Made by a program: the position numbers and the translations under genes. A model generated the notes under the pieces. That model was given only the letters and a program-made list of their open reading frames with translations. It searched no databases and was not told the origin of the DNA. Of a stretch of 64,000 nucleotides of DNA, positions 1-46,884 are shown piece by piece; positions within the stretch are counted from its first letter, which is position 1; the number at the start of each line of letters is the position of its first letter. The stretch spans positions 11,429-75,428 of the forward strand of contig CAZXAM010000003.1 in assembly GCA_964638545.1 (NCBI GenBank), in the 5' to 3' direction. The DNA comes from an uncultured Rikenellaceae bacterium. GTDB lineage: Bacteria > Bacteroidota > Bacteroidia > Bacteroidales > VadinHA17.

Positions 1-2275
1 ACTTGTGCTTACCCATATTTTCGTTCAGGAAAGTGGCAGAATAGACATAAGAAATATTATATCTGTTCATCAGATAGTCAAGCTTGCGGTAGATAATATC
101 TGTTCCATCATATGTCGATGAGATGAATGTTTCAAAGGGTAAATACGAGAGAATATTATCAGGAGAGATCATCAGGTTGTCCGAGAGGAAATATTTTTTT
201 ACAGGTTCTATCAGAGTCTGGTACAGACCAAAGCCGATTTTCTGAAAATCCCTGAATTTTGTCCTTGTTCCTTCGGAGTTCAAAGGATATGCAAGGAGGT
301 TCCTGAAATCTTCAAGGCGTTGCATGAACGAAGAATCGGTTTGGATTGTCACAAGCTGTCTGTGCTTTTTGTTGACAAGAAAAACATAGAGTACAGTATC
401 GGAGACAACATAGTTCAGGTAGTTAGATCCTCGCCCGATGATCTTAGGAATTTCTTTCAGCGCCGGGACACTGTTACTGTATTTAAGTGAGAAATATCCG
501 GGATAATCTTTCTCAAATGTCAGAATGAGGGCATCGCGGGCAGTAACGGCCTCAAGCAGATTCTGTTTCCAAATGGCAAGCATATCCTTATCCGGTTTTT
601 CCTTTTCATTTTCCTGGGAGATCCTGAAATTGTAAAATCCAATTTTTCTCTGAAGCTCTTTTTCTTTCCCCGCCAGAAGGTCAGGTATATGGAACTGAAC
701 GGCCTTCATCTGTCTTGTAGCAGAAAGAAGACCTGCAACTTTGCTTTTTTCTGCGTATTCGAAGGCTTTTTCAAGATAGCGGCTGTCGCCGGTTTTCCTG
801 TAGCAAAGTTCGAAATCGCGGATTGCAGTCAGGTATGAATTCCGGAAGTTATCCCCGAGTATCAGCCTGCTTTCTTCTTCAGTGATAGTGTACCTTATTC
901 TGTCGAGGAGGGAGATAACCAGTTCGGATGTTTCCGCTGCTTTTTCCAGGATATGGATATTTCCGGATTCAGAGTACATGCTCCGCAATATATCGTATTT
1001 AAGCTGCAGAAGTCTCAGTGAGCTTCTGTCGACTGTGATCGAATCGAGTGAAGGATTCGCGATGATATTGTCATCGGCATTCTGTCCATTATTTCTGAAG
1101 AGGAGATCTCTGATGATCACCAGCGCCTGCCTTTTTTCACCGTTATTGAACAGCATTCTGGCATAGCCCGACAGAATCTGTGTTTTCATCACAACGTCTT
1201 TTTCATGCTTCCCGATGTATGTAAGAAGAGTATCATATATTGCTGATGTTTTAGCGGTACCGCCCATAAAATCTGACAGATAACCTGCATAATTATTAAG
1301 AACCTCGATATAGGAGCGCGATCCACGGCCATATACCTCGATCGCTTTTCCTGCCACTCCCGAAAGGAGCCTCTCTCCTTTTTCAGCATCTCCTGACCTG
1401 GCAAGCGTTGACGCATAATTATAGATCAGGTTAAATGTCATATTGGTATTCTTGTCGACAGCCAGGTTAATTCCGCGGGAAAAGAATTCGGATTCCTTGT
1501 CAGAAAGGCCGAGATGACCATATGTGACCGCCATACTGTTGATCAGGTTAATGTAGTCTTCATCGCGGGAGATGTTATTCTCAAGTATCATTGATTCGGC
1601 TTTTTCAAGGTATATCCTGGCCTTTGCATAATCTCCCATTCTGGCATACCCTACTCCGACCGTATTATAGAAGCGGCTGAGACCCTGATTGTCCAGTGCA
1701 TAGTTGTTGTTGTTTATAATCATCTGCGCCCTGAACGAGTAATCAATAAAATCTTCGTAGTCGAGGCATTCTATAGAGGCTGCAGCCAGGGCAGAGTATG
1801 CTTCAGCAAGCTGAGGGGCATTCTCCCCATACTGCCTTACCATCAGACCTGCATAATCTTTCATATAGACAACGACCTGAAGGAAATCGCCAAGATAACT
1901 TGATGCGGTTCCGGCGTTGAAGATTGCATTTGCATATCTTTCGTCTTCCATTTCCAGCTTTTTCCTGATACCAATGCACTCATCAAGTTTGGACATTGCG
2001 GAATTATACCTCCCAGACAGAAGGTCGCAAACTCCCGAAAAATAAAAGATATCGGATATCATCATGCTGTCGCCCGGATGAAACCGGATCGAATTCCGGA
2101 GACTGTCGGAAACTGAACGAAGTCCTGTGGTATCACCGTTAGCTGCCATCAGCTGAATCCTTGTACCTATACGGTCGAATTTGTCAGCTGACTGGCTGAA
2201 AGAGGCTCGCAAATTCAGAGCTGTAAAAAAAAACAGCACAGCCGAAACAAACATTAAGTTCAAATACCGGAACAT
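1..2275 (-). CDS. Secreted TPR-repeat + CHAT-domain protein (partial; C-terminus lies beyond window start)
   Basis: Absent from the ORF track because it runs off the edge. Manual translation of the minus strand from ATG 2275-2273 is stop-free to position 2 (758 codons). The N-terminus MFRYLNLMFVSAVLFFFTALNLRASFSQS looks like a signal peptide, followed by long TPR-like helical repeats. The last in-window residues (LMISPDNILSYLPFETF...RYNISYVYSATFL) resemble the start of CHAT domains. The catalytic His/Cys would lie outside the window. Confidence 0.75.
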   Translation of the reverse strand, partial: MFRYLNLMFVSAVLFFFTALNLRASFSQSADKFDRIGTRIQLMAANGDTTGLRSVSDSLRNSIRFHPGDSMMISDIFYFSGVCDLLSGRYNSAMSKLDECIGIRKKLEMEDERYANAIFNAGTASSYLGDFLQVVVYMKDYAGLMVRQYGENAPQLAEAYSALAAASIECLDYEDFIDYSFRAQMIINNNNYALDNQGLSRFYNTVGVGYARMGDYAKARIYLEKAESMILENNISRDEDYINLINSMAVTYGHLGLSDKESEFFSRGINLAVDKNTNMTFNLIYNYASTLARSGDAEKGERLLSGVAGKAIEVYGRGSRSYIEVLNNYAGYLSDFMGGTAKTSAIYDTLLTYIGKHEKDVVMKTQILSGYARMLFNNGEKRQALVIIRDLLFRNNGQNADDNIIANPSLDSITVDRSSLRLLQLKYDILRSMYSESGNIHILEKAAETSELVISLLDRIRYTITEEESRLILGDNFRNSYLTAIRDFELCYRKTGDSRYLEKAFEYAEKSKVAGLLSATRQMKAVQFHIPDLLAGKEKELQRKIGFYNFRISQENEKEKPDKDMLAIWKQNLLEAVTARDALILTFEKDYPGYFSLKYSNSVPALKEIPKIIGRGSNYLNYVVSDTVLYVFLVNKKHRQLVTIQTDSSFMQRLEDFRNLLAYPLNSEGTRTKFRDFQKIGFGLYQTLIEPVKKYFLSDNLMISPDNILSYLPFETFISSTYDGTDIIYRKLDYLMNRYNISYVYSATFLNENMGKHK

Positions 2276-2505
2276 CAGATTATGCTTTTTCCCTTCTAAA
2301 TATCTCAATAATATACGTGATAATCAAATTTTTTAATCCCATTTAGAAAAAAACGAGCTTGTATATGATTGAATATCAGAATTTAAAAAAATATTTTAAA
2401 AAAAACTGCATTTTTTTGGTCACAAACACGAGGGTTGTTACATGTAGTAATGAAAACAATTACAGAATTACCCTGAATTAAAATAAAATAAAAACAATTA
2501 CGAGT

Positions 2506-2640
2506 ATGAAAACCCTGAATTTCAAAAAAACAAGTGATCTCTTTGCCGGATTTGCATTATCAAATGATGAAATGATTAAAATACGTGGCGGGGAAAATGA
2601 CGGAACAATAAAACCACCTAACCCTCCCATCAAGATCTGA
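2506..2640 (+). CDS. 44-aa precursor-like peptide with double-glycine (GG) leader
   Basis: ATG 2506, TGA 2638-2640. Translation: MKTLNFKKTSDLFAGFALSNDEMIKIRGG / ENDGTIKPPNPPIKI. It is below the 60-aa track cutoff. The leader ends in L-S-x-x-E-M-x-x-I-x-G-G, the pattern of Bacteroidota GG-type bacteriocin/natural-product precursors. Confidence 0.55.
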   Translation: MKTLNFKKTSDLFAGFALSNDEMIKIRGGENDGTIKPPNPPIKI

Positions 2641-2884
2641 TAAGAAAGGTATGGAATTCTGTTCGCTTTTGGACGGAAACAAAATATAATATATCATCCC
2701 GGCAGGGATGATCAGGCTGGAGCTGATGACAATTGGCCCGGTTGAGGTTGGCACACCAATTTGCAGACATCTGTAATTGGCAATCTGGTGTGCACAGCTG
2801 ACAGCCGGATCAGGAGTTGACACAGATGAACAGTTTATTAAATTGTCTTACGGGATTGAATAAAAAACAAATATTCCAGGTTAT

Positions 2885-3631
2885 ATGAAAACAATCGACT
2901 TCTCCTATTTCATCGAAAGATACAACTCAGGTGAAATGGACGATACAGAAAAGCAATGGTTCCAGAAGGAACTTGAAGGAAACAAAAACCTCAGGGATGA
3001 GGTAAACCTCAGAGCCAAGACTGACATGGTACTGAAAGATTACTCATCCCTGCAGCTCAGGAACAAACTCCGTGCAATTGAAAAAGAGAGGGCAGCAGCA
3101 ATTCCCCCAAGAAACGGAGGCAGGCAGTCATCAATCAGGTATGCCGCAGCTATCGCGGTTTTAGTCCTTCTGGGAAGCATACTTCTTTTCCGGGGCAGGA
3201 GCCTGACACAGGAAGAGATCATGGACAGGTTCTATACACCTTATGAAGTGATTGCAGCTTCCAGGTCGGCCGGGGAGATAGTGGATGAAAATTACAAAAC
3301 TGCCCTCGACTACTATAATATCCATGATTACGGCACGGCGGCACAGTTCTTCAAAAAAGTCCTTGACGAGAACCCCAACGACATGGCCTCGACAATGCTT
3401 TATGGAGTATCCAGCTTTGAAGAAGAAGATTACCCTCTGGCTCAAAAATCATTCACCGAGGTAGTAACCGATAACGACAACTTCTACATTGAAGATGCAC
3501 AATGGTACCTTGCATTATGCTACATACGAACAGATGAGCGGTCGAAGGCAATCGAACAGCTTACACTGATAAAAAACTCGGAGAGCATTTATTCAAAGCA
3601 TGCAGGGAAAATCCTGAAAAAGATCCGATAG
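2885..3631 (+). CDS. Single-pass membrane protein with C-terminal TPR repeats (anti-sigma-factor-like layout)
   Basis: 248-aa ORF with ATG start. It has one hydrophobic helix (AAAIAVLVLLGSILLF). The C-terminal half has TPR-like motifs (ALDYYNIHDYGTAAQFFKKVLDENPND..., AQWYLALCYIRTDERSKAIEQL). Confidence 0.75.
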   Translation: MKTIDFSYFIERYNSGEMDDTEKQWFQKELEGNKNLRDEVNLRAKTDMVLKDYSSLQLRNKLRAIEKERAAAIPPRNGGRQSSIRYAAAIAVLVLLGSILLFRGRSLTQEEIMDRFYTPYEVIAASRSAGEIVDENYKTALDYYNIHDYGTAAQFFKKVLDENPNDMASTMLYGVSSFEEEDYPLAQKSFTEVVTDNDNFYIEDAQWYLALCYIRTDERSKAIEQLTLIKNSESIYSKHAGKILKKIR

Positions 3632-3647
3632 ATAAATATTCAGGGAT

Positions 3648-4484
3648 ATGCGGAACCTTATCTTAAATACCAAAGCCAATGACAACGATTCTCAGGCAAA
3701 CAGAAATGGAATCGATAAGGTTGATATTATCCATAATTACGATATGATCAAATGTCCGACAATCCTGACAGGCGTGTCGCATGAAGTGAGAACGCACATG
3801 AATGCAATCGTTGCGTTTTCGTACCTGATGAACAGGGATTCCTCAAACGATTCGGAACGAGAGGAATTCAGCAATCAGATACTCTCTTCGTGTGCTCAGC
3901 TTATTGGTTTGCTGGATAATTTTCTGGATTCGGCGATAATTGATCTGTGCAACCAGAAAACTGACCTTCGAAGATACAAGCTAAGCAGCATACTGGATGA
4001 GATGTATTCAGAATTCCGGGAAGCTCTCAGAAGAGAAGGCCAGGAGGAAGTTGAACTTGTTGCGGAGAGCAGAGAGCATGATCCGACTGAAGTTATCATA
4101 GATTCTGACAGGGTATTCAGGGTAATTCGCGCCCTTTTCCAGAATTCGCTGAAAAATACAGCTTCAGGGTACATTAAGATAGGTTACGAATTCAGGGAGA
4201 GTACAGTAACCTTTCATATAATTGATTCCGGCCAGGGTTATTTCAAATGCAAAGAATTTCTTCATACAGAAGATCTGAACCAATCGCTTTTAAAATTCAA
4301 CGATACAGTTTCGGCGGTTAACATAACCCTGGCCAAGAAACTTATTTCAGTCCTGGGCGGAACCGTGTGGCTCGAATGCAACGGGCTCACGGGTTCCGGT
4401 TTTTATTTCTCGATACCGGTAAAGAAGGCCGGAAGCCCGGATGTAAACATAGATAAACATCTCAATCCCATGATCGCAATCTGA
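3648..4484 (+). CDS. Histidine kinase core (HisKA + HATPase_c) without sensor or TM domain
   Basis: The H-box SHEVRTHMNAI lies only about 45 aa from the N-terminus. An N-box-like FQNSLKNT and a G1 box IIDSGQG are present, and the G2 region is degenerate. There are no hydrophobic segments. It starts 17 nt after the TPR gene. Confidence 0.8.
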   Translation: MRNLILNTKANDNDSQANRNGIDKVDIIHNYDMIKCPTILTGVSHEVRTHMNAIVAFSYLMNRDSSNDSEREEFSNQILSSCAQLIGLLDNFLDSAIIDLCNQKTDLRRYKLSSILDEMYSEFREALRREGQEEVELVAESREHDPTEVIIDSDRVFRVIRALFQNSLKNTASGYIKIGYEFRESTVTFHIIDSGQGYFKCKEFLHTEDLNQSLLKFNDTVSAVNITLAKKLISVLGGTVWLECNGLTGSGFYFSIPVKKAGSPDVNIDKHLNPMIAI

Positions 4485-6501: not shown

Positions 6502-7128
6502 TTACGGTATATGCATGTATTTATGTATCTGCAGGGAAATCCTCCATTCAGGATTTTTCCTGGCATAGTTTACCAATTCCGGAATTACAGTTTCAAACCT
6601 GCTCCATTCCGGCTGCAGGAACAGCCTGCATTTCGGGCTGACCAATCCCCTGCATTTCTCAGCCCAATCAAGATCAGTGTTATCCTGAATGATAACTTTC
6701 AGTTCGTCAGCCTTTTTGCAGATATTTAAATCCGGGGGCATGTTTTTCTTGGGTGAAAGGCAAATCCAGTCCCACATGCCGCTAAGCGGATATGCACCTG
6801 ATGTCTCAATAAATGTACAGATATTGTTCTCCCTGAGATTCTTACAGAGCAGGTCAAGGTTCCACATCAACGGTTCTCCGCCTGTAACGACTACTGAATC
6901 TGCTCCTGAACCGACAACACGCCTGGTAAGTTCATCTGTGCTTACCAACGGAAGAAATTCAGGATCCCAGGCAAATCTTGTATCGCACCAGCTGCACCCT
7001 ACATCGCATCCTCCCAGACGTATGAAATATGCGGCTTTGCCAGCATGATATCCTTCACCCTGAATTGAATAAAACTCCTCGACAAGAGGAAGCATATTGC
7101 TTCTATCATCTATTTTGACCTTTTTCAC
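6502..7128 (-). CDS. queE: 7-carboxy-7-deazaguanine synthase (radical SAM)
   Basis: EEFYSIQGEGYHAGKAAYFIRLGGCDVGCSWCDT carries the CxxxCxxC radical-SAM cluster in the QueE-typical context. The track start at 7128 is GTG. An in-frame ATG at 7095 (MLPLVEEF...) is an equally plausible start. Confidence 0.9.
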   Translation of the reverse strand: MKKVKIDDRSNMLPLVEEFYSIQGEGYHAGKAAYFIRLGGCDVGCSWCDTRFAWDPEFLPLVSTDELTRRVVGSGADSVVVTGGEPLMWNLDLLCKNLRENNICTFIETSGAYPLSGMWDWICLSPKKNMPPDLNICKKADELKVIIQDNTDLDWAEKCRGLVSPKCRLFLQPEWSRFETVIPELVNYARKNPEWRISLQIHKYMHIP

Positions 7129-13629: not shown

Positions 13630-14748
13630 ATGAAGAAGAGCCTAAGAATCACAATTACAATTTCATTGATAGTTATACTGGCATCAATAATTTTTTATCC
13701 TAAATACAAACCTGTACTTAAAAAGCTGACAGGCAAAGAGAAGGGTGACATGGGTCCTAATCCAGGCCAGGGAGGAAGAGGAGGTTTCGCCTCAGGAAGA
13801 CAGATCCTGAACGTAAGCGGATTTCTGATCATGCCTGCAAGCGTCAGCGATTTGTACAGGAGCACCGGACAGTTGAGACCCGATGAGGAAGTTGAACTAT
13901 CCTTTGAGACATCGGGAAAAGTTGTCGGCATCAATTTCACCGAAGGAACAAGAGTCAAGAAAGGTTTCCTTCTGGCAAAAATGAATGACAAGCCCCTTCA
14001 GGCTCAACTTGAGAAATTAATGGCTCAGCGGAAGCTTACAGAGGAAAAAGAGTTCAGGCAAAGGTCGCTTCTTGAAAAGGATGCAATCAGCCAGGAGAGC
14101 TATGACCAGATTGTTACAGAGCTTCAGACTATTCAGGCAGATATAAATCTGGTCAAAGCCAGAATCTCTGAAACAGAACTGCATGCACCTTTTGACGGCA
14201 TTATCGGAGTTCGTTATCTCAGTGAAGGAACATACGCGAATCCATCGACAAAGGTCGCCCGGCTCGTTAAAATCAGTCCGATAAAACTGGATTTTTCCAT
14301 TTCAGAACGATTTGCGAATCAGGTTCAGGCAGGATATCCAGTAACATTTACTGTCGATGGGAACAGCAAGATTTACGAGGCTTCGGTATATGCAATCGAT
14401 CCGAAGCTGGATGAGGAGACCAGGACGATTACAATCAGGGCTTTGTATCCGAACAAGAACGAGGAGCTGAAACCAGGCCGCTTTGCCCCTGTCACACTTC
14501 TTCTTTCGAAGATCGACAACACAATTTCCATTCCCAGTGAAGCCATAACCCCGGAAATGGATGGTGAAATGGTTTATGTGTACAGAAACGGAAAAGCAAA
14601 TATCATAAAGGTCACCACAGGTTTGCGTACGGAATCCATGGTTCAAATCACGGAAGGGCTGAAATTTGGTGACACGCTTATCACCACAGGCATACTTCAG
14701 CTCCGTCAGGGGCTTCCTGTAGTGCTCGACACTCTTATCAAAAATTAA
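13630..14748 (+). CDS. Efflux RND transporter periplasmic adaptor (MFP/HlyD family)
   Basis: 372 aa with an N-terminal TM anchor, a coiled-coil hairpin and a beta-barrel region (ELHAPFDGIIGVRYLSEGTY). It is first in a three-gene efflux operon. Confidence 0.9.
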   Translation: MKKSLRITITISLIVILASIIFYPKYKPVLKKLTGKEKGDMGPNPGQGGRGGFASGRQILNVSGFLIMPASVSDLYRSTGQLRPDEEVELSFETSGKVVGINFTEGTRVKKGFLLAKMNDKPLQAQLEKLMAQRKLTEEKEFRQRSLLEKDAISQESYDQIVTELQTIQADINLVKARISETELHAPFDGIIGVRYLSEGTYANPSTKVARLVKISPIKLDFSISERFANQVQAGYPVTFTVDGNSKIYEASVYAIDPKLDEETRTITIRALYPNKNEELKPGRFAPVTLLLSKIDNTISIPSEAITPEMDGEMVYVYRNGKANIIKVTTGLRTESMVQITEGLKFGDTLITTGILQLRQGLPVVLDTLIKN

Positions 14749-14760
14749 TAACCGGCCAGA

Positions 14761-17700
14761 ATGAGCATTTCGACCACCAGCATAAACAGACCGGTACTGG
14801 CTTCAGTATTTGCGATTATTATTCTCCTGTTCGGATTCGTCGGACTTACGTATTTGGGGATCAGGGAATTTCCCAGCGTTGACCCGGCTATCATAACAGT
14901 AAGCACCTCCTATCCGGGGGCAAACTCGGATGTAATTGAAACACAAATCACTGAACCTCTTGAACAGAATATCAACGGTATCCCGGGAGTCCGCACACTT
15001 ACAAGTGTAAGCAGTCAGGGAAGGAGCAACATAACCGTTGAATTCGAATTGTCTGTTGATCTTGAAACTGCCGCCAATGACGTCCGTGACAAAGTATCGC
15101 AGGCTACAAGGCTTCTTCCGCGCGATTGCGATCCGCCGACAGTGGCCAAGGCTGACGCAGATGCGAATCCAATACTGTTCCTTACCGTGGAGAGCAGTAA
15201 AAGATCGCTGCTGCAGCTTTCTGAAATAGCCGACCTGACTCTTAAAGAACAACTTCAGACTATTTCGGGTGTGAGCGCTGTCAATATTTTTGGAGAAAAA
15301 AGATATTCGATGCGCCTCTGGATGGATCCATCCAAACTTGCAGGCTACGGCCTGACGCCTATGGATGTAAGGAATGCAATCAGCCGTGAAAATGTAGAGC
15401 TTCCATCAGGTTCCATCGAAGGCACCAACACTCAGCTTACTATAAGGACGCTTGGACTGATGACCACGCCTAAAGAATTCAATGATCTGATCATAAAGCA
15501 ATCAGGAGGCAGGATTGTAAGATTCAGCGATATCGGGAGGGCTGAGCTTGGACCCGAAGATATAAGAGGGATACTTAAGAGAGACGGCGTTCCGATGGTT
15601 CAGATCGCAATGATCCCTCAGCCAGGCTCGAATCATATTGATATAGTCGACGAAGTTTACACGAGGCTTGAATATATAAAGAAAGACCTACCGGCAGATG
15701 TTAAGGTCAATGTCAATTATGACAATACCGAATATATACGCTCCTCGATCAAGGAAGTCAAGGACACGATCTATATTGCATTTTTCCTTGTTGTGATCAT
15801 AATTTATGTTTTTCTCAGAAGCTGGCGCGCAACACTTATTCCGATCCTTGTGATTCCTATTTCCCTGGTGGGTTCATTCTTCATCATGTATGTGGCGGGA
15901 TTCACCATCAATGTATTGACGCTTCTTGCCATTGTGCTTGCTATTGGTATTGTCGTTGATGATGCGATAGTTGTGATGGAAAACATATATGTCAAAGTGG
16001 AGTCAGGGATGAATCCCATTGAAGCCGGACTTAAAGGATCAAAGGAGATCTATTTTGCAATTATCTCGACTACAATAACCCTTGTATCTGTTTTCTTCCC
16101 TATTGTATTCCTTCAGGGTATCACAGGGCGTCTTTTCAGGGAATTCAGCATTGTTATGGCTGGTGCGGTAACCATTTCCGCTTTTCTTGCACTGTCGCTG
16201 ACGCCAATGGTATCCACCAAATTGCTGCGTCACGAAAAGAAACACAGCTGGTTTTTCAGGAAAACAGAAAAATTCTTTGACCGTCTCAATAAATGGTACA
16301 GCGACGCTCTTGGATCTTTCCTGAAACATCGCAGGTGGGCGCTTGTCATACTCGTTACCGCCCTGGGACTGGTGGTTCTTCTATGGAACTCCATCCCGGC
16401 CGAAATGGCACCGCTTGAGGACCGCTCGCAGATTACCATAAATATGTCGGCGCCTGAAGGTGCAACCTATGAATATATGCTCAGCTACGCCGATGATTTG
16501 TCGAATCTGGTGGAGAAAAGGGTACCTGAGCGTCAAAGCTATACTGCGATGGTAAGAGGCGGCAGTTTTTCCAATATGAGGATCATGCTTCAGAAGCCGG
16601 ATGAAAGGGAAAGGACTCAGCAGGAAATAGCCGATCAGCTCTCTTTTGACCTAAGGACAAAGACAAAAGCCCGTTCATTCGTTCAGCAGCAATCGACTTT
16701 CGGAAGCCGGCGCGCAGGTATGCCTGTACAGTATGTGTTGCAGGCTACTTCCATTGAAAAACTAAGGGAGATCCTTCCTGAATTCATGGCGCGTGTCAGC
16801 GAAAGCGAAATCCTTCAAATGGCAGATGTGAACCTGAAATTTACAAAACCAGAGCTCAGGATCCACATAAACAGGGATAAGGCAACCTCACTGGGAGTTT
16901 CAACGCAAAGCATAGGCCAGACTCTTCAGCTGGCACTAAGCGGACAAAGGTTCGGATATTTTTTCATGAATGGAAAACAATACCAGATACTCGGAGAACT
17001 CGCCCGTTCCGACCGTAACAAGCCTCTCGATCTGAAATCCCTTTACGTGAGAAACGACAGGGGTGAGATGATACAATTCGATAATCTTGTCACGCTTACC
17101 GAGGAGACAGCTCCGCCCCAGCTGTATCGTTACAACAGGTTCGTTGCTGCGACCGTCTCCGCTGGCCTTGTAAAAGGACGGACTATAAGTGAAGGGATAG
17201 AAGAAATGGACAGGATCGCAAAGGAAGTGCTCGATGATTCATTCAGGACAGCCCTGGCAGGAGACTCCAAGGACTTCATGGAAAGTTCTTCAAGCCTCAT
17301 GTTTGCATTTGCACTTGCGCTTGTTCTGATCTTTCTGGTTCTCGCCGCGCAATTTGAAAGCTTCAAGGATCCGCTGATCGTAATGATGACTATCCCGCTA
17401 GCTCTCACTGGTGCGCTTGTATTCATGTGGTACTTTAACCTCACAATGAACATCTTCAGCCAGATCGGACTTATAATGCTTATAGGACTTGTTTCGAAGA
17501 ACGGAATTCTGATTGTTGAATTTGCCAATCAGAGGAAAAGCTCAGGCATGGTAAAGATGGAAGCTATAAAATATGCAGCATCTGCGCGTTTCCGTCCCAT
17601 ACTAATGACAAGCCTTGCAACTATTCTGGGCATTTCGCCCCTGGCGCTGGGATTCGGGGAAGGTGCACAGAGCCGCGTGGCAATGGGTACTGCAGTTGTC

Positions 17701-17814
17701 GGGGGAATGATATTCGCAACATTTCTGACACTGTTCATTGTACCTGCAATCTATACCTATATTTCGAGTGAAACAAAATTTTCGAAGGATGAAAACAAGG
17801 TTGGTGTCTCTTAG
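14761..17814 (+). CDS. Efflux RND transporter permease (AcrB/HAE1 family)
   Basis: 1017 aa with 12-TM RND topology. SINRPVLASVFAIIILLFG, VVDDAIVVMENI and KNGILIVEFANQ are present. Confidence 0.95.
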   Translation: MSISTTSINRPVLASVFAIIILLFGFVGLTYLGIREFPSVDPAIITVSTSYPGANSDVIETQITEPLEQNINGIPGVRTLTSVSSQGRSNITVEFELSVDLETAANDVRDKVSQATRLLPRDCDPPTVAKADADANPILFLTVESSKRSLLQLSEIADLTLKEQLQTISGVSAVNIFGEKRYSMRLWMDPSKLAGYGLTPMDVRNAISRENVELPSGSIEGTNTQLTIRTLGLMTTPKEFNDLIIKQSGGRIVRFSDIGRAELGPEDIRGILKRDGVPMVQIAMIPQPGSNHIDIVDEVYTRLEYIKKDLPADVKVNVNYDNTEYIRSSIKEVKDTIYIAFFLVVIIIYVFLRSWRATLIPILVIPISLVGSFFIMYVAGFTINVLTLLAIVLAIGIVVDDAIVVMENIYVKVESGMNPIEAGLKGSKEIYFAIISTTITLVSVFFPIVFLQGITGRLFREFSIVMAGAVTISAFLALSLTPMVSTKLLRHEKKHSWFFRKTEKFFDRLNKWYSDALGSFLKHRRWALVILVTALGLVVLLWNSIPAEMAPLEDRSQITINMSAPEGATYEYMLSYADDLSNLVEKRVPERQSYTAMVRGGSFSNMRIMLQKPDERERTQQEIADQLSFDLRTKTKARSFVQQQSTFGSRRAGMPVQYVLQATSIEKLREILPEFMARVSESEILQMADVNLKFTKPELRIHINRDKATSLGVSTQSIGQTLQLALSGQRFGYFFMNGKQYQILGELARSDRNKPLDLKSLYVRNDRGEMIQFDNLVTLTEETAPPQLYRYNRFVAATVSAGLVKGRTISEGIEEMDRIAKEVLDDSFRTALAGDSKDFMESSSSLMFAFALALVLIFLVLAAQFESFKDPLIVMMTIPLALTGALVFMWYFNLTMNIFSQIGLIMLIGLVSKNGILIVEFANQRKSSGMVKMEAIKYAASARFRPILMTSLATILGISPLALGFGEGAQSRVAMGTAVVGGMIFATFLTLFIVPAIYTYISSETKFSKDENKVGVS

Positions 17815-19111
17815 CCTTTTCTTTCTATTTACTGCCAGCCAGTTGCCGGGACAGAAGATCTATGATGTCAGGGAATGCATAAAGACCGGGCTCGACAGGA
17901 ATTATTCCCTGTTGATAATCCGTAACAACGAGGCAATAGCAAAGAACAATCACACCATTGGCAACGCAGGTTATCTTCCTTCGCTGGATCTCAGCGGAAG
18001 GCACAGTGGCACACTAAATGATTCCAGGACGAATCTCGGTGACACAAGCGGCACGTTTACCAACAATATCCATAACACGACAAGTTCCGGATCGTTAGGA
18101 ATGGGATTGACCATTTTCGACGGTTTCAGTGTGTCGACAACTTACAGGAAGCTTGGCGAGCTTAAGAAGATAGGAGGACTGAATACTCAGCTCGCCATTG
18201 AGAATCTTGTTGCCGACATTGTCGTTGCATATAATAATTATATTCAGCAAGTAAAACTGCTTGAAAATCTTGAATATGCGGTATCCCTTTCAAGGGAAAG
18301 ACTGAGGATTGACGAAGACAGGTATTTGCTGGGATCAAATTCAAAGCTACAGGTTTTGCAGTCAAGAGTCTACCTGAATGCCGACAGTTCAAGGCTTTCA
18401 AAGCAGGTTGAGACAGTCCATGCGGCTCAGATACGCCTCAATGAGCTCATGGCTGTTGAGGACCTTAACGGCAGGTTCACTGCAAGCGATACCACAATAG
18501 CAGTCAATCAGCCTCTTCTTTTTGAGAAGCTTTATAATGAAACACTGGCAAAGAACACCAGCCTGCTGATAGCATCAGCTAATAAAACAATTTCGGAGTA
18601 TGATTACAAGCTGGCAAAATCAAGGTCTTATCCATATCTCACAGCTTCATCGGGGTATAACTATAACTTTAATACCTTCTCGCACAGTTCATTCGATAAT
18701 CAGCAGACGAACGGGCTCAGCTACGGGGTAACGCTTGGATTCAATATTTTTGACGGATTCAACCAAAGGAGAAGCATCCGGAACTCTTCGATAGATATTC
18801 AGAGCAAGGAGCTTAAATACCAGGAAATAGAACAGGGTGTAAAAGCTGATCTCATTACCATATTCAGCGCGTACAGCAATTACCTGAGGCTCATAGAGCT
18901 TGAGAAGCAAAATTTAAGCACGGCGACGGAAAACCTCACGATCGCAATGGAAAGATACAAGCTGGGCAGTCTATCGGGGATAGATTTGAGAGAAGTTCAG
19001 AAGAGTCTGCTTGATGCAAGAGAGAGCCTCCTTTCGGTTCAATACATGACCAAGCTTGCAGAAATCTCACTTAAGCTTATTTCAGGAGGAATAATGGAAT
19101 ATTACAATTAG
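17789..19111 (+). CDS. TolC-family outer membrane efflux protein
   Basis: Start set at ATG 17789 (MKTRLVSLSLFFLFTASQLPGQ signal), overlapping the permease end. Two OEP repeats are visible. Confidence 0.85.
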   Translation: MKTRLVSLSLFFLFTASQLPGQKIYDVRECIKTGLDRNYSLLIIRNNEAIAKNNHTIGNAGYLPSLDLSGRHSGTLNDSRTNLGDTSGTFTNNIHNTTSSGSLGMGLTIFDGFSVSTTYRKLGELKKIGGLNTQLAIENLVADIVVAYNNYIQQVKLLENLEYAVSLSRERLRIDEDRYLLGSNSKLQVLQSRVYLNADSSRLSKQVETVHAAQIRLNELMAVEDLNGRFTASDTTIAVNQPLLFEKLYNETLAKNTSLLIASANKTISEYDYKLAKSRSYPYLTASSGYNYNFNTFSHSSFDNQQTNGLSYGVTLGFNIFDGFNQRRSIRNSSIDIQSKELKYQEIEQGVKADLITIFSAYSNYLRLIELEKQNLSTATENLTIAMERYKLGSLSGIDLREVQKSLLDARESLLSVQYMTKLAEISLKLISGGIMEYYN

Positions 19112-44076: not shown

Positions 44077-46884
44077 TCAGATTTTATCGATCAGTTCCTG
44101 TTTCTTAACTTTTGCTTCTTCTATTATGTTATTTGCCCTTTTATCGGCTTCGGTTGTAAGCTGGGTTGCTCTTTTATCTGCTTCCTGTTTAAGCCTGTCG
44201 GCGGCTTTCTGGGCCGCAAGCTTTGCTACAGCTCCTTTTGATGCTGCTTCATTCACAAGATTCTGACTCTGCAGATTGGCCTCCTTCCTTATTTTCTCAG
44301 CGGCATCGGCGGCTTCATTGCGCAACTTCTGAGCAGTTGCTTCAGCCTCCTGAATCAGCTTGTCGCCTTGTGCCTCTGCCTCTTTCCTTGCCTTTTCCTT
44401 GCCTTCATCAATAGCATTTCCAACAGTCTGCTTTACGGTTTCCTTTACACCGGCAGATGTCCCGCTCTGCGAAGCGTCACCAAATACCGGTGTCACAACC
44501 GGCTTTCCGAAGACCCCTGTCAGCCTAACATTTACCTTCATAATATCGGCAGGTTTATAAGAAATCCCGACTGAGGAGGCCAGTGCCGACAGATTGTCGA
44601 CCATTGTATTTACCGAACTGCCAAGCTCCGACCGGGGGAATTCAGTTTTAATGAGATAATTCATAGTCTGGTCAAGGCCCTGGTCGCCGCTGATATTCAA
44701 CTTAATATTCCCCACCCTGGTATCAAAAGGACTGACATAGACCCGACCTTCACTGAGTTTAAAGCTCACATTAAGGTCCCTGAAGATATTGGAGTATTTT
44801 TCATTAAGCTTAAGAAGCTCTTTCATCTTATCGTAGGCTGCCGATTTGAGCAGTGTAATTTCTTCGGACTGAAGTTTCCCTCCTCCGGTAATTGTGGCGA
44901 TAAGGGGCATCATGTTTGATCCGAGGAGGCTCTGGTATGAAAGTTTAACATTCATTTTCCCGTCAACTCCTGCTGCGGCAGGTGCAAGCTTCTGGATTGT
45001 ATTGAATGTATTGAACGCATCTTTTACTCCTATGTTTTGAATTGCCAGATCTGCCTTCATCATCGGTTTAAGTGTATCACGGGTATCATAATCGGCATCC
45101 AGGGTAATGAGTCCGCCCAGGATGTAAAGTCCTGTCTCCCTGAAGCTCAGTACGCCATTCCTTACAATAATATGTCCCTTTACATTCTCTGCCCTGATCT
45201 TATCATAAGAGAACTTCTTTATATTCGCATTGAAATCAAAATCAATGTTTTCCGGCACTTTAATAACTGCCAGAGAAGTTGTATCCTCCGTCTCGGTAGA
45301 ATCAGATGCAATTTTTGAAAGGATCTCCGAAATATCGACAAAATCAGATCTCATCGCAAGATTCCCCTTTATTGTCTCATCCTTAAGCAGGTAAGGAAGA
45401 TAGTTTTCCAGTTTGCCTGAAAGGTGGAAGTCGCTTTTACCCCCGATATTAAGATCGGCATTTGTAAGAGAGGCGTATGCCGGAGAGAATTCCAGGCCGG
45501 CATCGTTGATCCTGATTTCAGGGTAGCCTGTCATCGCTACAAGCATGTTCTGAAATCCCATTTTCCCTGAAGCCTGGAATTTGTCGTATTGTTCCTTTTC
45601 GAGCATGGAGAGCCGTCCTGCCATTTTTACAGACATATCCACTATTCCTGAAAGGCTGATACTGTCGAGTGGAATTGCTTTTGTCAGAGCGTCAAGATCT
45701 ATCTTTCCGGTCAGTGAAGCTTTAATATCGGGATCACTGACAGGATTTCTGAGAGAAAATGTCATGTCGAAAGGATTTCCGGCCAGCTGAAAATGGAAGA
45801 GATCAGCATTTGCAGTCGTACCGTCCATATCGGTGCCGTCAACAAAAGCTTTCATATTAATATTGATATCCTTAATCTTTTCGGGCAGATCAGGATAGCT
45901 GATAAGTCCGTTGTTGACAACAAGATCCAGTGAGATATCAGGCAGGGTGGTGTCGGCATCGCTGTAGACCCCTTTGGCTGTACCGTTAAGAGTAAAATCG
46001 CCCGTAGCGGTAAGATCTTTGAAATCTTCCATATATAATGCAGGGATCAGAGAAAGCAATGTTTTAAATGATGTCTTATCCGTCCCGAATTTAAGGTCGG
46101 TCTCGATATCATCACCGGGCATGGCGACCATCCCGGAAAATTTCAGAATCAGATCGTTTATTGACAGGTAATTTTCTCCGAAAGTAAATTTGTAATTCTC
46201 AAGATCAGCCAGGAGATTAATTTCAGCATCTGCCAGAGCTTTACTCAGATATGCTACATCTTCCATAACCACTGATAACTCTCCGATCTTCAGATAAATC
46301 AGAAGATCGGTCCGGCTGGCAACCATATCGCCCGTAAGGTTGAGATTAAGATTACCCAGTTTCGCAAAAAGGTCTGAGCTTTCGTCGGTATATGTGACAT
46401 TTGAATTCAGCAGGGCAACCTTTTTCAGTTTCATCCTGAATGTTGAAGTATCTGATTCTTCAACAGTTTCGGTCGTATCTTTGGCAATATCCCAGTTTGC
46501 AGTTCCATCTTTAAGGATTATTGCATTTATAACTGCATTGTCGATAATCAGTGATCTGACCTCATACCCGGACTTTTTGAATAAGCTGGGCAGGTTTAAC
46601 ACAAGGTCGAAAGATTTACATCCAGCCAGAGTATCACCCTGGAACTTATCCACTCCTACCACCGATACATCATTGAGTGAAAATGAAAGGTTGGGGAAGT
46701 TACGGAAGAAGCCTATTTTATAATCATCAAACTTTACCTGGGCATTAACGGATTCGTTGATGACCTTTTCGACCTTAGTCTTGAGCTTCTCCTTGAAAAT
46801 CACGGGGATTGTAAAAAGCAGTAGGAGGATGAGAAGTATCAGTCCTCCAAGTATTTTAAGTATCCAGCCGGTCGTTTTTTTCAT
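44077..46884 (-). CDS. AsmA-family protein with charged coiled-coil C-terminal extension
   Basis: 935 aa with an N-terminal TM anchor (WILKILGGLILLILLLLF) and a long beta-rich AsmA-like body. The last ~110 aa are K/E/A-rich (KEAEAQGDKLIQEAEATAQKLRNEAADAAEKIRKEA...). Confidence 0.8.
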   Translation of the reverse strand: MKKTTGWILKILGGLILLILLLLFTIPVIFKEKLKTKVEKVINESVNAQVKFDDYKIGFFRNFPNLSFSLNDVSVVGVDKFQGDTLAGCKSFDLVLNLPSLFKKSGYEVRSLIIDNAVINAIILKDGTANWDIAKDTTETVEESDTSTFRMKLKKVALLNSNVTYTDESSDLFAKLGNLNLNLTGDMVASRTDLLIYLKIGELSVVMEDVAYLSKALADAEINLLADLENYKFTFGENYLSINDLILKFSGMVAMPGDDIETDLKFGTDKTSFKTLLSLIPALYMEDFKDLTATGDFTLNGTAKGVYSDADTTLPDISLDLVVNNGLISYPDLPEKIKDININMKAFVDGTDMDGTTANADLFHFQLAGNPFDMTFSLRNPVSDPDIKASLTGKIDLDALTKAIPLDSISLSGIVDMSVKMAGRLSMLEKEQYDKFQASGKMGFQNMLVAMTGYPEIRINDAGLEFSPAYASLTNADLNIGGKSDFHLSGKLENYLPYLLKDETIKGNLAMRSDFVDISEILSKIASDSTETEDTTSLAVIKVPENIDFDFNANIKKFSYDKIRAENVKGHIIVRNGVLSFRETGLYILGGLITLDADYDTRDTLKPMMKADLAIQNIGVKDAFNTFNTIQKLAPAAAGVDGKMNVKLSYQSLLGSNMMPLIATITGGGKLQSEEITLLKSAAYDKMKELLKLNEKYSNIFRDLNVSFKLSEGRVYVSPFDTRVGNIKLNISGDQGLDQTMNYLIKTEFPRSELGSSVNTMVDNLSALASSVGISYKPADIMKVNVRLTGVFGKPVVTPVFGDASQSGTSAGVKETVKQTVGNAIDEGKEKARKEAEAQGDKLIQEAEATAQKLRNEAADAAEKIRKEANLQSQNLVNEAASKGAVAKLAAQKAADRLKQEADKRATQLTTEADKRANNIIEEAKVKKQELIDKI

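Follow-up and report, generated by a model that had tools for sequence, protein, structure and literature searches.

A conserved double-glycine-leader peptide gene, and candidate secreted signal, beside TPR, CHAT and sigma factor genes of uncultured Bacteroidales

We analysed a 64-kb stretch of DNA from an uncultured Rikenellaceae bacterium (contig CAZXAM010000003.1; this whole stretch is called the window below). Sequence comparisons strongly support that a 44-codon open reading frame (ORF) near its left end is a real, conserved gene, translated into a precursor peptide with a double-glycine (GG) leader. That this precursor is processed and secreted by a peptidase-containing ATP-binding cassette (ABC) transporter, or PCAT, we regard as very probable. 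In related genomes the gene stands in a module with genes for a PCAT, an extracytoplasmic function (ECF) sigma factor, a TPR-CHAT protein, a TPR membrane protein of 248 amino acids (aa) and a histidine kinase. A role as a signal would fit both this conserved gene context and the chemistry of the peptide. A full signalling model, in which the peptide is an exported, self-made signal that acts via the TPR/CHAT machinery, falls just short of what we would call probable.

Conservation, leader and core of the peptide gene

An earlier note on this DNA had described a clean ORF running from ATG to TGA, alone in a gap of about 600 nt, and this description was borne out (Table 1). An in-frame stop lies just before position 2482, and the ATG at 2506 is the first in-frame one after it. 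The gap extends from the start of a minus-strand gene at 2275 to the start of a plus-strand gene at 2885 and measures 609 nt. Within the window the peptide gene is present in one copy. In public records it is sometimes called "hypothetical protein" (for instance MCU0455160.1), without a function or a family name. A search of the intergenic region against Rfam gave sub-threshold chance matches only, and over the whole window a tRNA-Arg was the sole match to an RNA family.

When 5.8 billion proteins were searched with a word-seeded method, eight homologues of 44-47 aa were obtained (E 1.8e-21 to 6.2e-5). These share a common invariant leader, and the differences between them are in-frame insertions of two to three residues directly after the Gly-Gly. 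A profile search of 1.84 billion cluster representatives returned 94 matches at E <= 1e-3, nearly all of them 40-70 aa long. One of these matches, the large repeat protein P0137, was rejected as spurious, since it scored through repeated low-complexity sequence. P0129 and P0170, likewise large, resemble P0137 in the table of matches.

The earlier note had named conservation and synteny in relatives, as well as coding constraint, as checks on the small ORF, and all of these were found. Using the 248-aa protein encoded downstream as an anchor, we fetched 80 species-level genome loci, all of which are metagenome-assembled genomes of uncultured Bacteroidales, Bacteroidia or "Rikenellaceae". A scripted search detected a syntenic ORF of 40-50 aa, about 225 nt 5' of the gene for the 248-aa protein, in 69 of the 80 loci. 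Two of the other 11 loci have no upstream sequence, and nine were passed over because the anchor motif was inexact; in eight of these nine the promoter-like element of the peptide gene (see below) is present. In a codon alignment (n=71) the entropies at codon positions 1, 2 and 3 were 0.76, 0.69 and 1.31 bits, respectively, and at the invariant Leu, Gly, Gly and Pro codons the third positions reached 1.4-1.8 bits, which is near saturation. The median pairwise ratio of non-synonymous to synonymous divergence (dN/dS) was 0.35 for 1741 pairs with dS < 1.5, an approximate ratio with dS near saturation. The length differences of the ORF between relatives are in-frame only. Because of the homologues, the syntenic ORFs and the coding constraint, we take the ORF not to be a chance one.

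The first 29 residues would form a canonical double-glycine leader. The classical consensus of such leaders is LSxxELxxIxGG. The window peptide has L18 (-12), S19 (-11), E22 (-8), M23 (-7), I26 (-4), G28 (-2) and G29 (-1), and so agrees with the consensus L, S, xx, E, L or M, xx, I or V, x, GG. Among 48 diverse family members, L18, E22, M23, G28 and G29 are invariant. None of the NCBIfam and Pfam models was matched by the window peptide at E <= 10. When the 48 members were scanned singly, 18 weakly matched TIGR04149 (best E 4.3e-6) and one matched TIGR01847 (E 0.11). TIGR04149 precursors are marked by a radical SAM/SPASM maturase encoded next to them and by Cys in the core; neither was found at the peptide locus. 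Since the cores have no Cys and there is no radical SAM partner, we infer that the TIGR04149 matches reflect leader-level homology to the Bacteroidota GG-leader type and not family membership; membership of TIGR01847 did not follow from the scans either. The consensus and the 18 weak matches therefore bear out the claim that this is a genuine peptide gene of the Bacteroidota double-glycine type. The further placing of the peptide among the TIGR04149- or TIGR01847-type families failed, as the window peptide has no match to these models.

Cleavage after Gly-Gly would release cores of 12-18 aa (median 16, 27% Pro, n=71). These cores are neutral or anionic, with a median side-chain charge of -1, and Cys occurs in 2 of the 71. 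In their consensus, an acidic linker with [DE]-P at its end precedes I-[LIV]-[KL]-P-x-x-P-P-[IV]-[KR]-I. The C-terminal pattern is PP[IV][KR]I, with a C-terminal Ile in 67 of the 71 cores and PPVKI and PPIKI as the commonest ends. The core had been described beforehand as short, proline-rich and Cys-free, without an accompanying enzyme of the kind that acts on ribosomally synthesised and post-translationally modified peptides (RiPPs), and this holds for the family. Such a core is unlike cationic, amphipathic or disulfide-bonded bacteriocin peptides. Conserved free C-termini are classically recognised by TPR domains, as by Hop with EEVD and by PEX5 with SKL.

Table 1. Coordinates of the peptide gene, its flanking sequences and its neighbours in the window
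Feature	Position	Strand	Description
44-aa double-glycine precursor gene	2506..2640	+	44 codons; ATG 2506, TGA 2638-2640; product MKTLNFKKTSDLFAGFALSNDEMIKIRGGENDGTIKPPNPPIKI
Leader segment of the peptide gene	2506..2592	+	29 aa, RGG at end
Predicted mature core of the peptide gene	2593..2637	+	15 aa, ENDGTIKPPNPPIKI
Promoter- or operator-like element	2411..2447	+	T-run and GTCACAAA-N13-ACATGT; about 60 nt 5' of the ATG
Conserved GAATTACCCTGAAT block	2465..2478	+	From alignment of upstream regions; between the element and the start codon
Stem-loop	2657..2678	+	8-bp stem, 17 nt after the stop; from fold of 2636..2730 and terminator-like scan
Second stem-loop	2695..2710		From fold of 2636..2730 and terminator-like scan
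TPR-CHAT protein, N-terminal 758 residues	1..2275	-	Signal-peptide-like start; divergent from the peptide gene; window edge cuts before His/Cys
248-aa single-pass membrane protein	2885..3631	+	Cytoplasmic N-terminal helices, transmembrane helix, periplasmic three-repeat TPR
278-aa histidine kinase	3648..4484	+	HisKA and HATPase_c; starts 17 nt after the TPR gene

The module around the peptide gene

We compared the gene order over 85 loci, and it is kept in all long loci. The genes for a DUF349 protein, HlyD and the PCAT point leftwards and are followed by the rightward sigma factor gene and the leftward TPR-CHAT gene. Then come the peptide gene, the gene for the 248-aa TPR protein and the histidine kinase gene, all three rightward, and finally the leftward OmpA/PD40/TPR and QueE genes. 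The TPR protein is encoded in all 85 loci, CHAT and the kinase in 82 each, the sigma factor in 73, the PCAT in 72 and HlyD in 64. Missing genes are attributed mostly to contig ends, in general and not locus by locus. The same arrangement is kept by the most divergent peptides (P0187, P0196, P0201, P0218 and P0219), and it persists even where the CHAT proteins are about 30% and the kinases about 34% identical. The neighbouring TPR gene is present in at least 160 species-level genomes, and the position of the peptide gene is fixed in every related locus examined. The module is vertically inherited and core-genomic.

Some loci show features of their own. In L002-L004 there is a lineage-specific insertion between the kinase gene and the OmpA/PD40 gene (L002:12254-16148). 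It encodes a 781-aa CarbopepD_reg_2 protein, which is TonB-dependent-receptor-like, a 125-aa LytTR protein without a receiver domain, and a DUF4249 protein. The insertion, which most loci lack, could play a part in the uptake of the peptide or in the response to it. The LytTR gene was rejected as a member of the module as it is confined to this insertion. The convergent sigma and TPR-CHAT genes overlap at their 3' ends by about 28 nt (L002:6777-6804, L091:3319-3346), which could couple their expression. On the 77.6-kb contig L001, the CHAT gene is in four pieces, the PCAT gene in two and the OmpA/PD40 gene in three; this splitting suggests a frameshift-rich assembly rather than real pseudogenes.

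As the earlier note had said, the window holds no C39-peptidase ABC exporter: tblastn of the window with the PCAT of a relative gave no match at E <= 1e-3. Of the ten large window ORFs that were scanned with Pfam, all but one are recognisable housekeeping genes, for an RND (resistance-nodulation-division) pump, a TolC-like protein, peptidases, RNase Y, subunits of a carboxylase and the like. The exception is a 935-aa ORF (44077..46884, minus strand), for which Pfam gave no family at E <= 1e-5. Wherever the sequence of a relative extends far enough upstream, a PCAT gene is located about 4 kb 5' of the peptide gene, usually with a gene for an HlyD-type adaptor alongside. These PCATs have 717-747 aa with Peptidase_C39 (E 4.2e-37), ABC_membrane and ABC_tran domains. 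Their C39 domains look catalytically complete, because the motifs QPDAMDCGP, HF[IV]VV and ADPA are present. A 188-aa ECF-type sigma factor is encoded beyond the CHAT gene in the relatives (TIGR02937, 61.9 bits against a cut-off of 42.9). The locus L091 shares 86% DNA identity with window positions 7..3180, has a 98%-identical peptide and shows the same PCAT/sigma arrangement. From this similarity the PCAT gene of the present genome would be predicted to start about 1.5 kb beyond window position 1. A search for a PCAT upstream of position 1 had been suggested; it is present in the relatives, including L091, and is expected here. The idea of a non-canonical export partner became unnecessary, as a canonical PCAT with an intact C39 domain lies upstream in the relatives.

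It had also been stated that no radical SAM enzyme is visible near the peptide gene. This was incorrect in the literal sense, since a radical SAM ORF is found about 4 kb away (6502..7128, minus strand), and correct in so far as no peptide maturase is concerned. From its matches to QueE models (best E 1.8e-34, which stays below the curated cut-offs), the ORF is judged to encode a queuosine-pathway enzyme (QueE, 7-carboxy-7-deazaguanine synthase). As a match to QueE models and a conserved housekeeping neighbour, it was rejected as maturase of the peptide. Apart from QueE, no radical SAM/SPASM, LanB/C/M, YcaO, ATP-grasp or other known maturase was found in the loci examined.

Two further observations concern the export side. 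Between the DUF349 and HlyD/PCAT genes lies an ORF of 57-64 aa (L002:3245-3430, L095:3543-3737, L097:619-804 and L099:347-520). Its product, which has no Pfam match, carries a membrane helix at the N-terminus, a basic stretch and, at the C-terminus, the motif DDYEPYSGK. The strict motif was found in 27 of 49 full-length loci, and the product is possibly an immunity-like or accessory protein. Within the window, an RND efflux part (13630..19111, plus strand) encodes an AcrB-type pump (14761..17814) and a TolC-like outer membrane factor (17738..19111); the ORF 5' of the pump gene (13630..14748) was outside the Pfam-scanned set. With the TolC-like gene, an outer-membrane channel usable by PCAT/HlyD exists in this genome. 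This channel could serve the exporter, though it is probably dedicated to the RND pump.

The neighbour upstream of the peptide gene encodes the TPR-CHAT protein. Its full-length relatives have 996-1060 aa, a CHAT domain (E 7.5e-53) with the motifs HLAMH and SSCNTG, and, at the C-terminus, a membrane helix with a short basic tail behind it. Because of the signal-like N-terminus and the C-terminal membrane anchor, the bulk of the protein is predicted to reside in the periplasm. Compared with PDB sequences, the full-length protein gave no significant match outside the TPR part. A TPR-CHAT protein with the His/Cys dyad whose gene adjoins the ECF sigma gene is seen in the relatives; the window copy ends at residue 758 and the sigma gene is off-window.

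In the 248-aa protein the first 70 residues are strikingly conserved. In an AlphaFold2 model (predicted local distance difference test score, pLDDT, 76), three helices at the N-terminus are followed by a membrane helix (residues 84-103) and by a TPR domain of three repeats. Structurally, this TPR domain was best matched by YbgF, the SycD/IpgC/PcrH chaperones and Hop-type TPRs, and all fold matches of the full-length model fell on the TPR part. As modelled, the domain resembles those whose ligands are peptides in extended form, often free C-termini. In 8 of 15 members of this protein family the N-terminal part weakly matched an NCBIfam anti-sigma model (best E 3e-4), and a conserved Cys/His zinc motif was not found in the protein. 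By topology and context, the 248-aa protein is a plausible candidate for a receptor and anti-sigma-like partner.

The histidine kinase has no further Pfam-detectable domain and hence no detectable sensor; its H-box histidine is visible, and inspection of the sequence revealed no membrane segment. In 82 of 85 loci its gene directly follows the TPR gene, and the two are probably co-transcribed.

Sequences around the peptide gene were also compared. The promoter- or operator-like element is the most conserved non-coding sequence of the region. Its exact GTCACAAA-N13-ACATGT pattern occurs once in the window (2419..2445) and once per locus in 67 related loci, and the element lies just 5' of the peptide gene in every cross-checked locus. 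When two mismatches were allowed, the only extra site in the window fell within the CHAT gene. For the conservation profile of the element, 79 sequences were anchored with ACATG as the second half. The 16-nt spacing from TGTCAC to ACATGT would suit a promoter of the sigma-70 family; an operator within a weak sigma-A promoter of the Bacteroidetes type is an equally good reading. Between the element and the start codon, the conserved GAATTACCCTGAAT block probably belongs to the 5' untranslated region of the peptide mRNA.

The sigma gene is preceded by the Bacteroidetes sigma-A -7 motif TAtaTTTG instead of the element of the peptide gene. The intergenic regions between the PCAT and sigma genes (L002:6168-6238 and equivalents) contain two strongly conserved blocks, AAGTAAAGATATTTATATTTT and GGAAATAnTATATTTGCCAATTGAT. 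The second of these holds the -7 motif TAnnTTTG before the sigma gene, with a shortened spacer in L002 and L008.

When the sequences downstream of the peptide gene were folded one by one (n=71 loci), 70% formed a hairpin of <= -8 kcal/mol no more than about 70 nt past the stop; the hairpin sequence differs between loci. The stem-loops after the stop are candidate terminators or attenuators and would make the peptide gene its own short transcript. A conserved TAT..TGATAT block about 70 nt 5' of the TPR gene suggests that this gene has its own promoter.

A possible signalling role and its alternatives

We propose that the PCAT encoded beyond the left edge of the window, usually with an HlyD-type adaptor, would cleave the precursor after Gly-Gly and export the resulting 15 residues, ENDGTIKPPNPPIKI, probably without any modification. 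The free and conserved C-terminus of the peptide, PP[IV][KR]I, may then be bound by a periplasmic TPR domain, either that of the 248-aa protein or that of the TPR-CHAT protease. Binding would alter the state of the membrane protein, possibly by triggering or blocking its cleavage by CHAT, and the signal would pass on to the ECF sigma factor of the locus and/or to the soluble histidine kinase. The promoter-like element of the peptide gene and the hairpin that follows it would fit a separately regulated and abundant small peptide transcript. Somewhat less probable than the general model is the specific version of a cell-to-cell or autocrine circuit, with the unmodified, proline-rich GG peptide as the dedicated ligand of a split TPR/TPR-CHAT sensor that controls the ECF sigma factor and/or the kinase.

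The signalling model was compared with the way in which the parts of the peptide and the neighbouring proteins diverge. For 53 loci, partial Mantel correlations were calculated from pairwise distances, with the flanking housekeeping genes controlled for and 500 permutations (Table 2). Divergence of the core goes with that of the TPR and CHAT proteins, and divergence of the leader goes with that of the exporter, which is the pattern that the signalling model predicts. The correlation of the leader with the kinase (0.59) exceeds that with the C39 domain (0.45). The clade with the YALTVEEMICVKGG leader has the most divergent kinases, and the leader-kinase correlation is probably a clade effect.

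Table 2. Partial Mantel correlations of the mature core and of the leader with neighbouring proteins
Protein or domain	Core, partial r	Leader, partial r
248-aa TPR protein, periplasmic domain	0.27 (p ~0.002)	0.04
248-aa TPR protein, N-terminal domain	0.23 (p ~0.002)	-0.03
CHAT	0.23 (p ~0.002)	0.18
PCAT, C39 domain	-0.13	0.45
PCAT, rest of protein	-0.02	0.36
Sigma factor	0.09	0.19
Histidine kinase	-0.10	0.59

Several points weigh against a signalling role. The partial Mantel correlations are of modest size, and with related sequences this kind of test is known to be liberal. The flanking housekeeping genes (DUF349, QueE, OmpA/PD40, 5'-nucleotidase and NamZ) are equally syntenic across the lineage, and therefore adjacency alone cannot prove a functional linkage. 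The exporter, the sigma factor and the catalytic residues of CHAT were observed only in relatives, as the window ends inside the CHAT gene. The anti-sigma matches reached 17-18 bits against a 100-bit cut-off in two members of the 248-aa family that were scored singly, and profile searches with the N-terminal region of the 248-aa protein gave nothing meaningful among PDB sequences and Pfam. The element of the peptide gene does not recur before the sigma gene or the PCAT gene, so that these data do not show autoregulation. In addition, PCAT together with HlyD normally exports to the outside of a Gram-negative cell, and a peptide of about 1.5 kDa therefore needs a route back into the periplasm. 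Every functional step beyond a translated and conserved gene is inferred.

The main rival to the signal reading is a small unmodified bacteriocin or microcin-like antagonist that leaves the cell via PCAT/HlyD, with the TPR, CHAT, sigma and kinase genes being mere neighbours or regulators of its production. A GG leader together with PCAT and HlyD is the classical export set of class II bacteriocins and microcins, and the synteny of the housekeeping genes makes adjacency weak evidence for a link to the sensors. The DDYEPYSGK membrane ORF that adjoins HlyD in many relatives could encode an immunity protein, but its strict motif is restricted to just over half of the full-length loci. GG-leader toxins are known from Bacteroidota, namely the bacteroidetocins (PMC6671954). 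The cores themselves argue against such an activity: class II bacteriocins and microcins have cationic or amphipathic cores, usually of more than 25 aa, whereas the cores found here are far below this length, mostly carry a slight negative charge or none, are not amphipathic and are nearly free of Cys. Bacteriocin loci are typically patchy and mobile; this gene is single-copy and occupies one core-genome position. Moreover, the divergence of the core follows the TPR and CHAT proteins and not the exporter. We consider an antagonist unlikely.

More improbable still is the reading as a RiPP precursor on whose core an unrecognised enzyme acts, either before export or after it; CHAT, for example, might trim the core further or ligate it head to tail or through side chains. 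CHAT belongs to the caspase/legumain-like protease clan, some members of which catalyse transpeptidation, and the divergence of the core correlates with that of CHAT. The acidic linker ending in [DE]-P between the GG and the hydrophobic Pro-rich tail is conserved and may be a second processing site, and weak matches to TIGR04149, a family of radical SAM-modified precursors, occur in relatives, which we read as similarity of the leader. Against this, no locus contains a known maturase, the sole radical SAM gene being that of QueE, and Cys is almost lacking from the cores. With its periplasmic topology, CHAT would therefore meet the peptide only after removal of the leader, and we know of no CHAT protein that modifies a RiPP. 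A regulatory upstream ORF, which would yield no functional peptide and would by its translation govern how far transcription passes the hairpin into the TPR-kinase operon, deserves hardly any credence. The hairpin after the stop in most loci and the spacer of about 225 nt before the next gene would suit it. On the other hand, amino acids are conserved along the whole ORF with a low dN/dS, the leader is a textbook GG leader whose divergence follows the C39 domain of the neighbouring PCAT, and the TAT..TGATAT block suggests a separate promoter for the TPR gene.

The signalling reading thus remains the one that we favour, at the strength stated above. If true, the peptide would be the first identified ligand for a sigma pathway under TPR-CHAT control, and the module would be a quorum-sensing-like system of a kind not described for Bacteroidota. 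GG-leader peptide pheromones are a hallmark of Gram-positive bacteria, and the GG peptides of Bacteroidota are known as toxins or RiPP precursors. A literature search on CHAT, ECF sigma factor, PCAT and secreted peptide in Bacteroidota found no paper that describes the module, and a search on double-glycine peptides in Bacteroidetes returned known toxin, RiPP and Gram-positive systems only. The module is a testable candidate for signals that activate bacterial TPR-CHAT proteases outside CRISPR systems, and it bears on whether environmental Bacteroidales use peptide signalling. As the peptide is short and can be synthesised and the binding domains are small and soluble, a direct test is feasible despite the uncultured hosts.

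Comparison with known systems

In the proposed mechanism only, the module would be analogous to DegS/RseA/sigma-E, where peptide C-termini of misfolded porin activate DegS via its PDZ domain and start the destruction of the anti-sigma factor. In both cases a free C-terminus bound by a periplasmic domain would activate a protease against an anti-sigma factor. The differences proposed here would be a dedicated secreted peptide, a TPR instead of a PDZ domain and a protease of the caspase fold instead of the HtrA type.

With the colicin V/microcin systems (CvaAB-TolC) and the bacteroidetocins the locus, as seen in the relatives, shares the GG leader, the PCAT and the HlyD-type adaptor in a Gram-negative cell. 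The core is, however, much shorter, anionic or neutral and without the disulfide of the bacteroidetocins, and the locus is core-genomic and not patchy. The likeness to TIGR04149 (GG_sam_targ_CFB) lies in the style of the leader; there is no SPASM maturase, the core is essentially Cys-free and the window peptide does not match the model.

Double-glycine peptide pheromones are reviewed as a class in PMC7595303. The streptococcal systems ComC/ComAB/ComDE and BlpC/BlpAB/BlpHR resemble the present locus, as seen in the relatives, in combining a short and here probably unmodified GG peptide, a dedicated PCAT and a sensor/regulator in one locus, with the peptide gene as a small, separately regulated unit. 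In contrast to the streptococci, the host here is a diderm of the Bacteroidales, and an HlyD-type adaptor accompanies the PCAT in most loci. The conserved module contains neither a polytopic membrane histidine kinase nor a LytTR response regulator, as present in ComCDE and BlpCHR; its kinase is of the HisKA type without a detectable sensor domain. Here the receptor candidates are a CHAT protease and TPR domains in the periplasm, and the module adds an ECF sigma factor.

The sensory side is most readily compared with DdvA/DdvS, in which an ECF sigma factor is under the control of a TPR-CHAT domain in the periplasm (PMC11506125). Signal-induced self-cleavage of CHAT followed by release of the sigma factor was proposed for DdvA, for which the signal is unknown (PMC11506125). 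CHAT proteins are also conserved beside ECF54 sigma factors (PMC8999054). As with DdvA/DdvS, one locus of the relatives brings together an ECF sigma factor, a periplasmic TPR-CHAT module that has the His/Cys dyad, and a membrane-spanning (single-pass) protein whose cytoplasmic domain is small and helical. DdvA fuses a CHCC-zinc anti-sigma domain to TPR-CHAT, whereas here two proteins are found. In the CHAT protein the hydrophobic signal-like segment comes first, without a fused zinc anti-sigma domain, and a Cys/His motif of this kind is absent from the 248-aa protein. The CHAT protein also gave no significant match to CHAT structures in the PDB. Unlike the DdvA locus, the one described here encodes a candidate ligand together with its exporter. 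All types of component are known; what is new is their combination, a GG peptide and PCAT, a split periplasmic TPR/TPR-CHAT pair, an ECF sigma factor and a histidine kinase without a detectable sensor domain.

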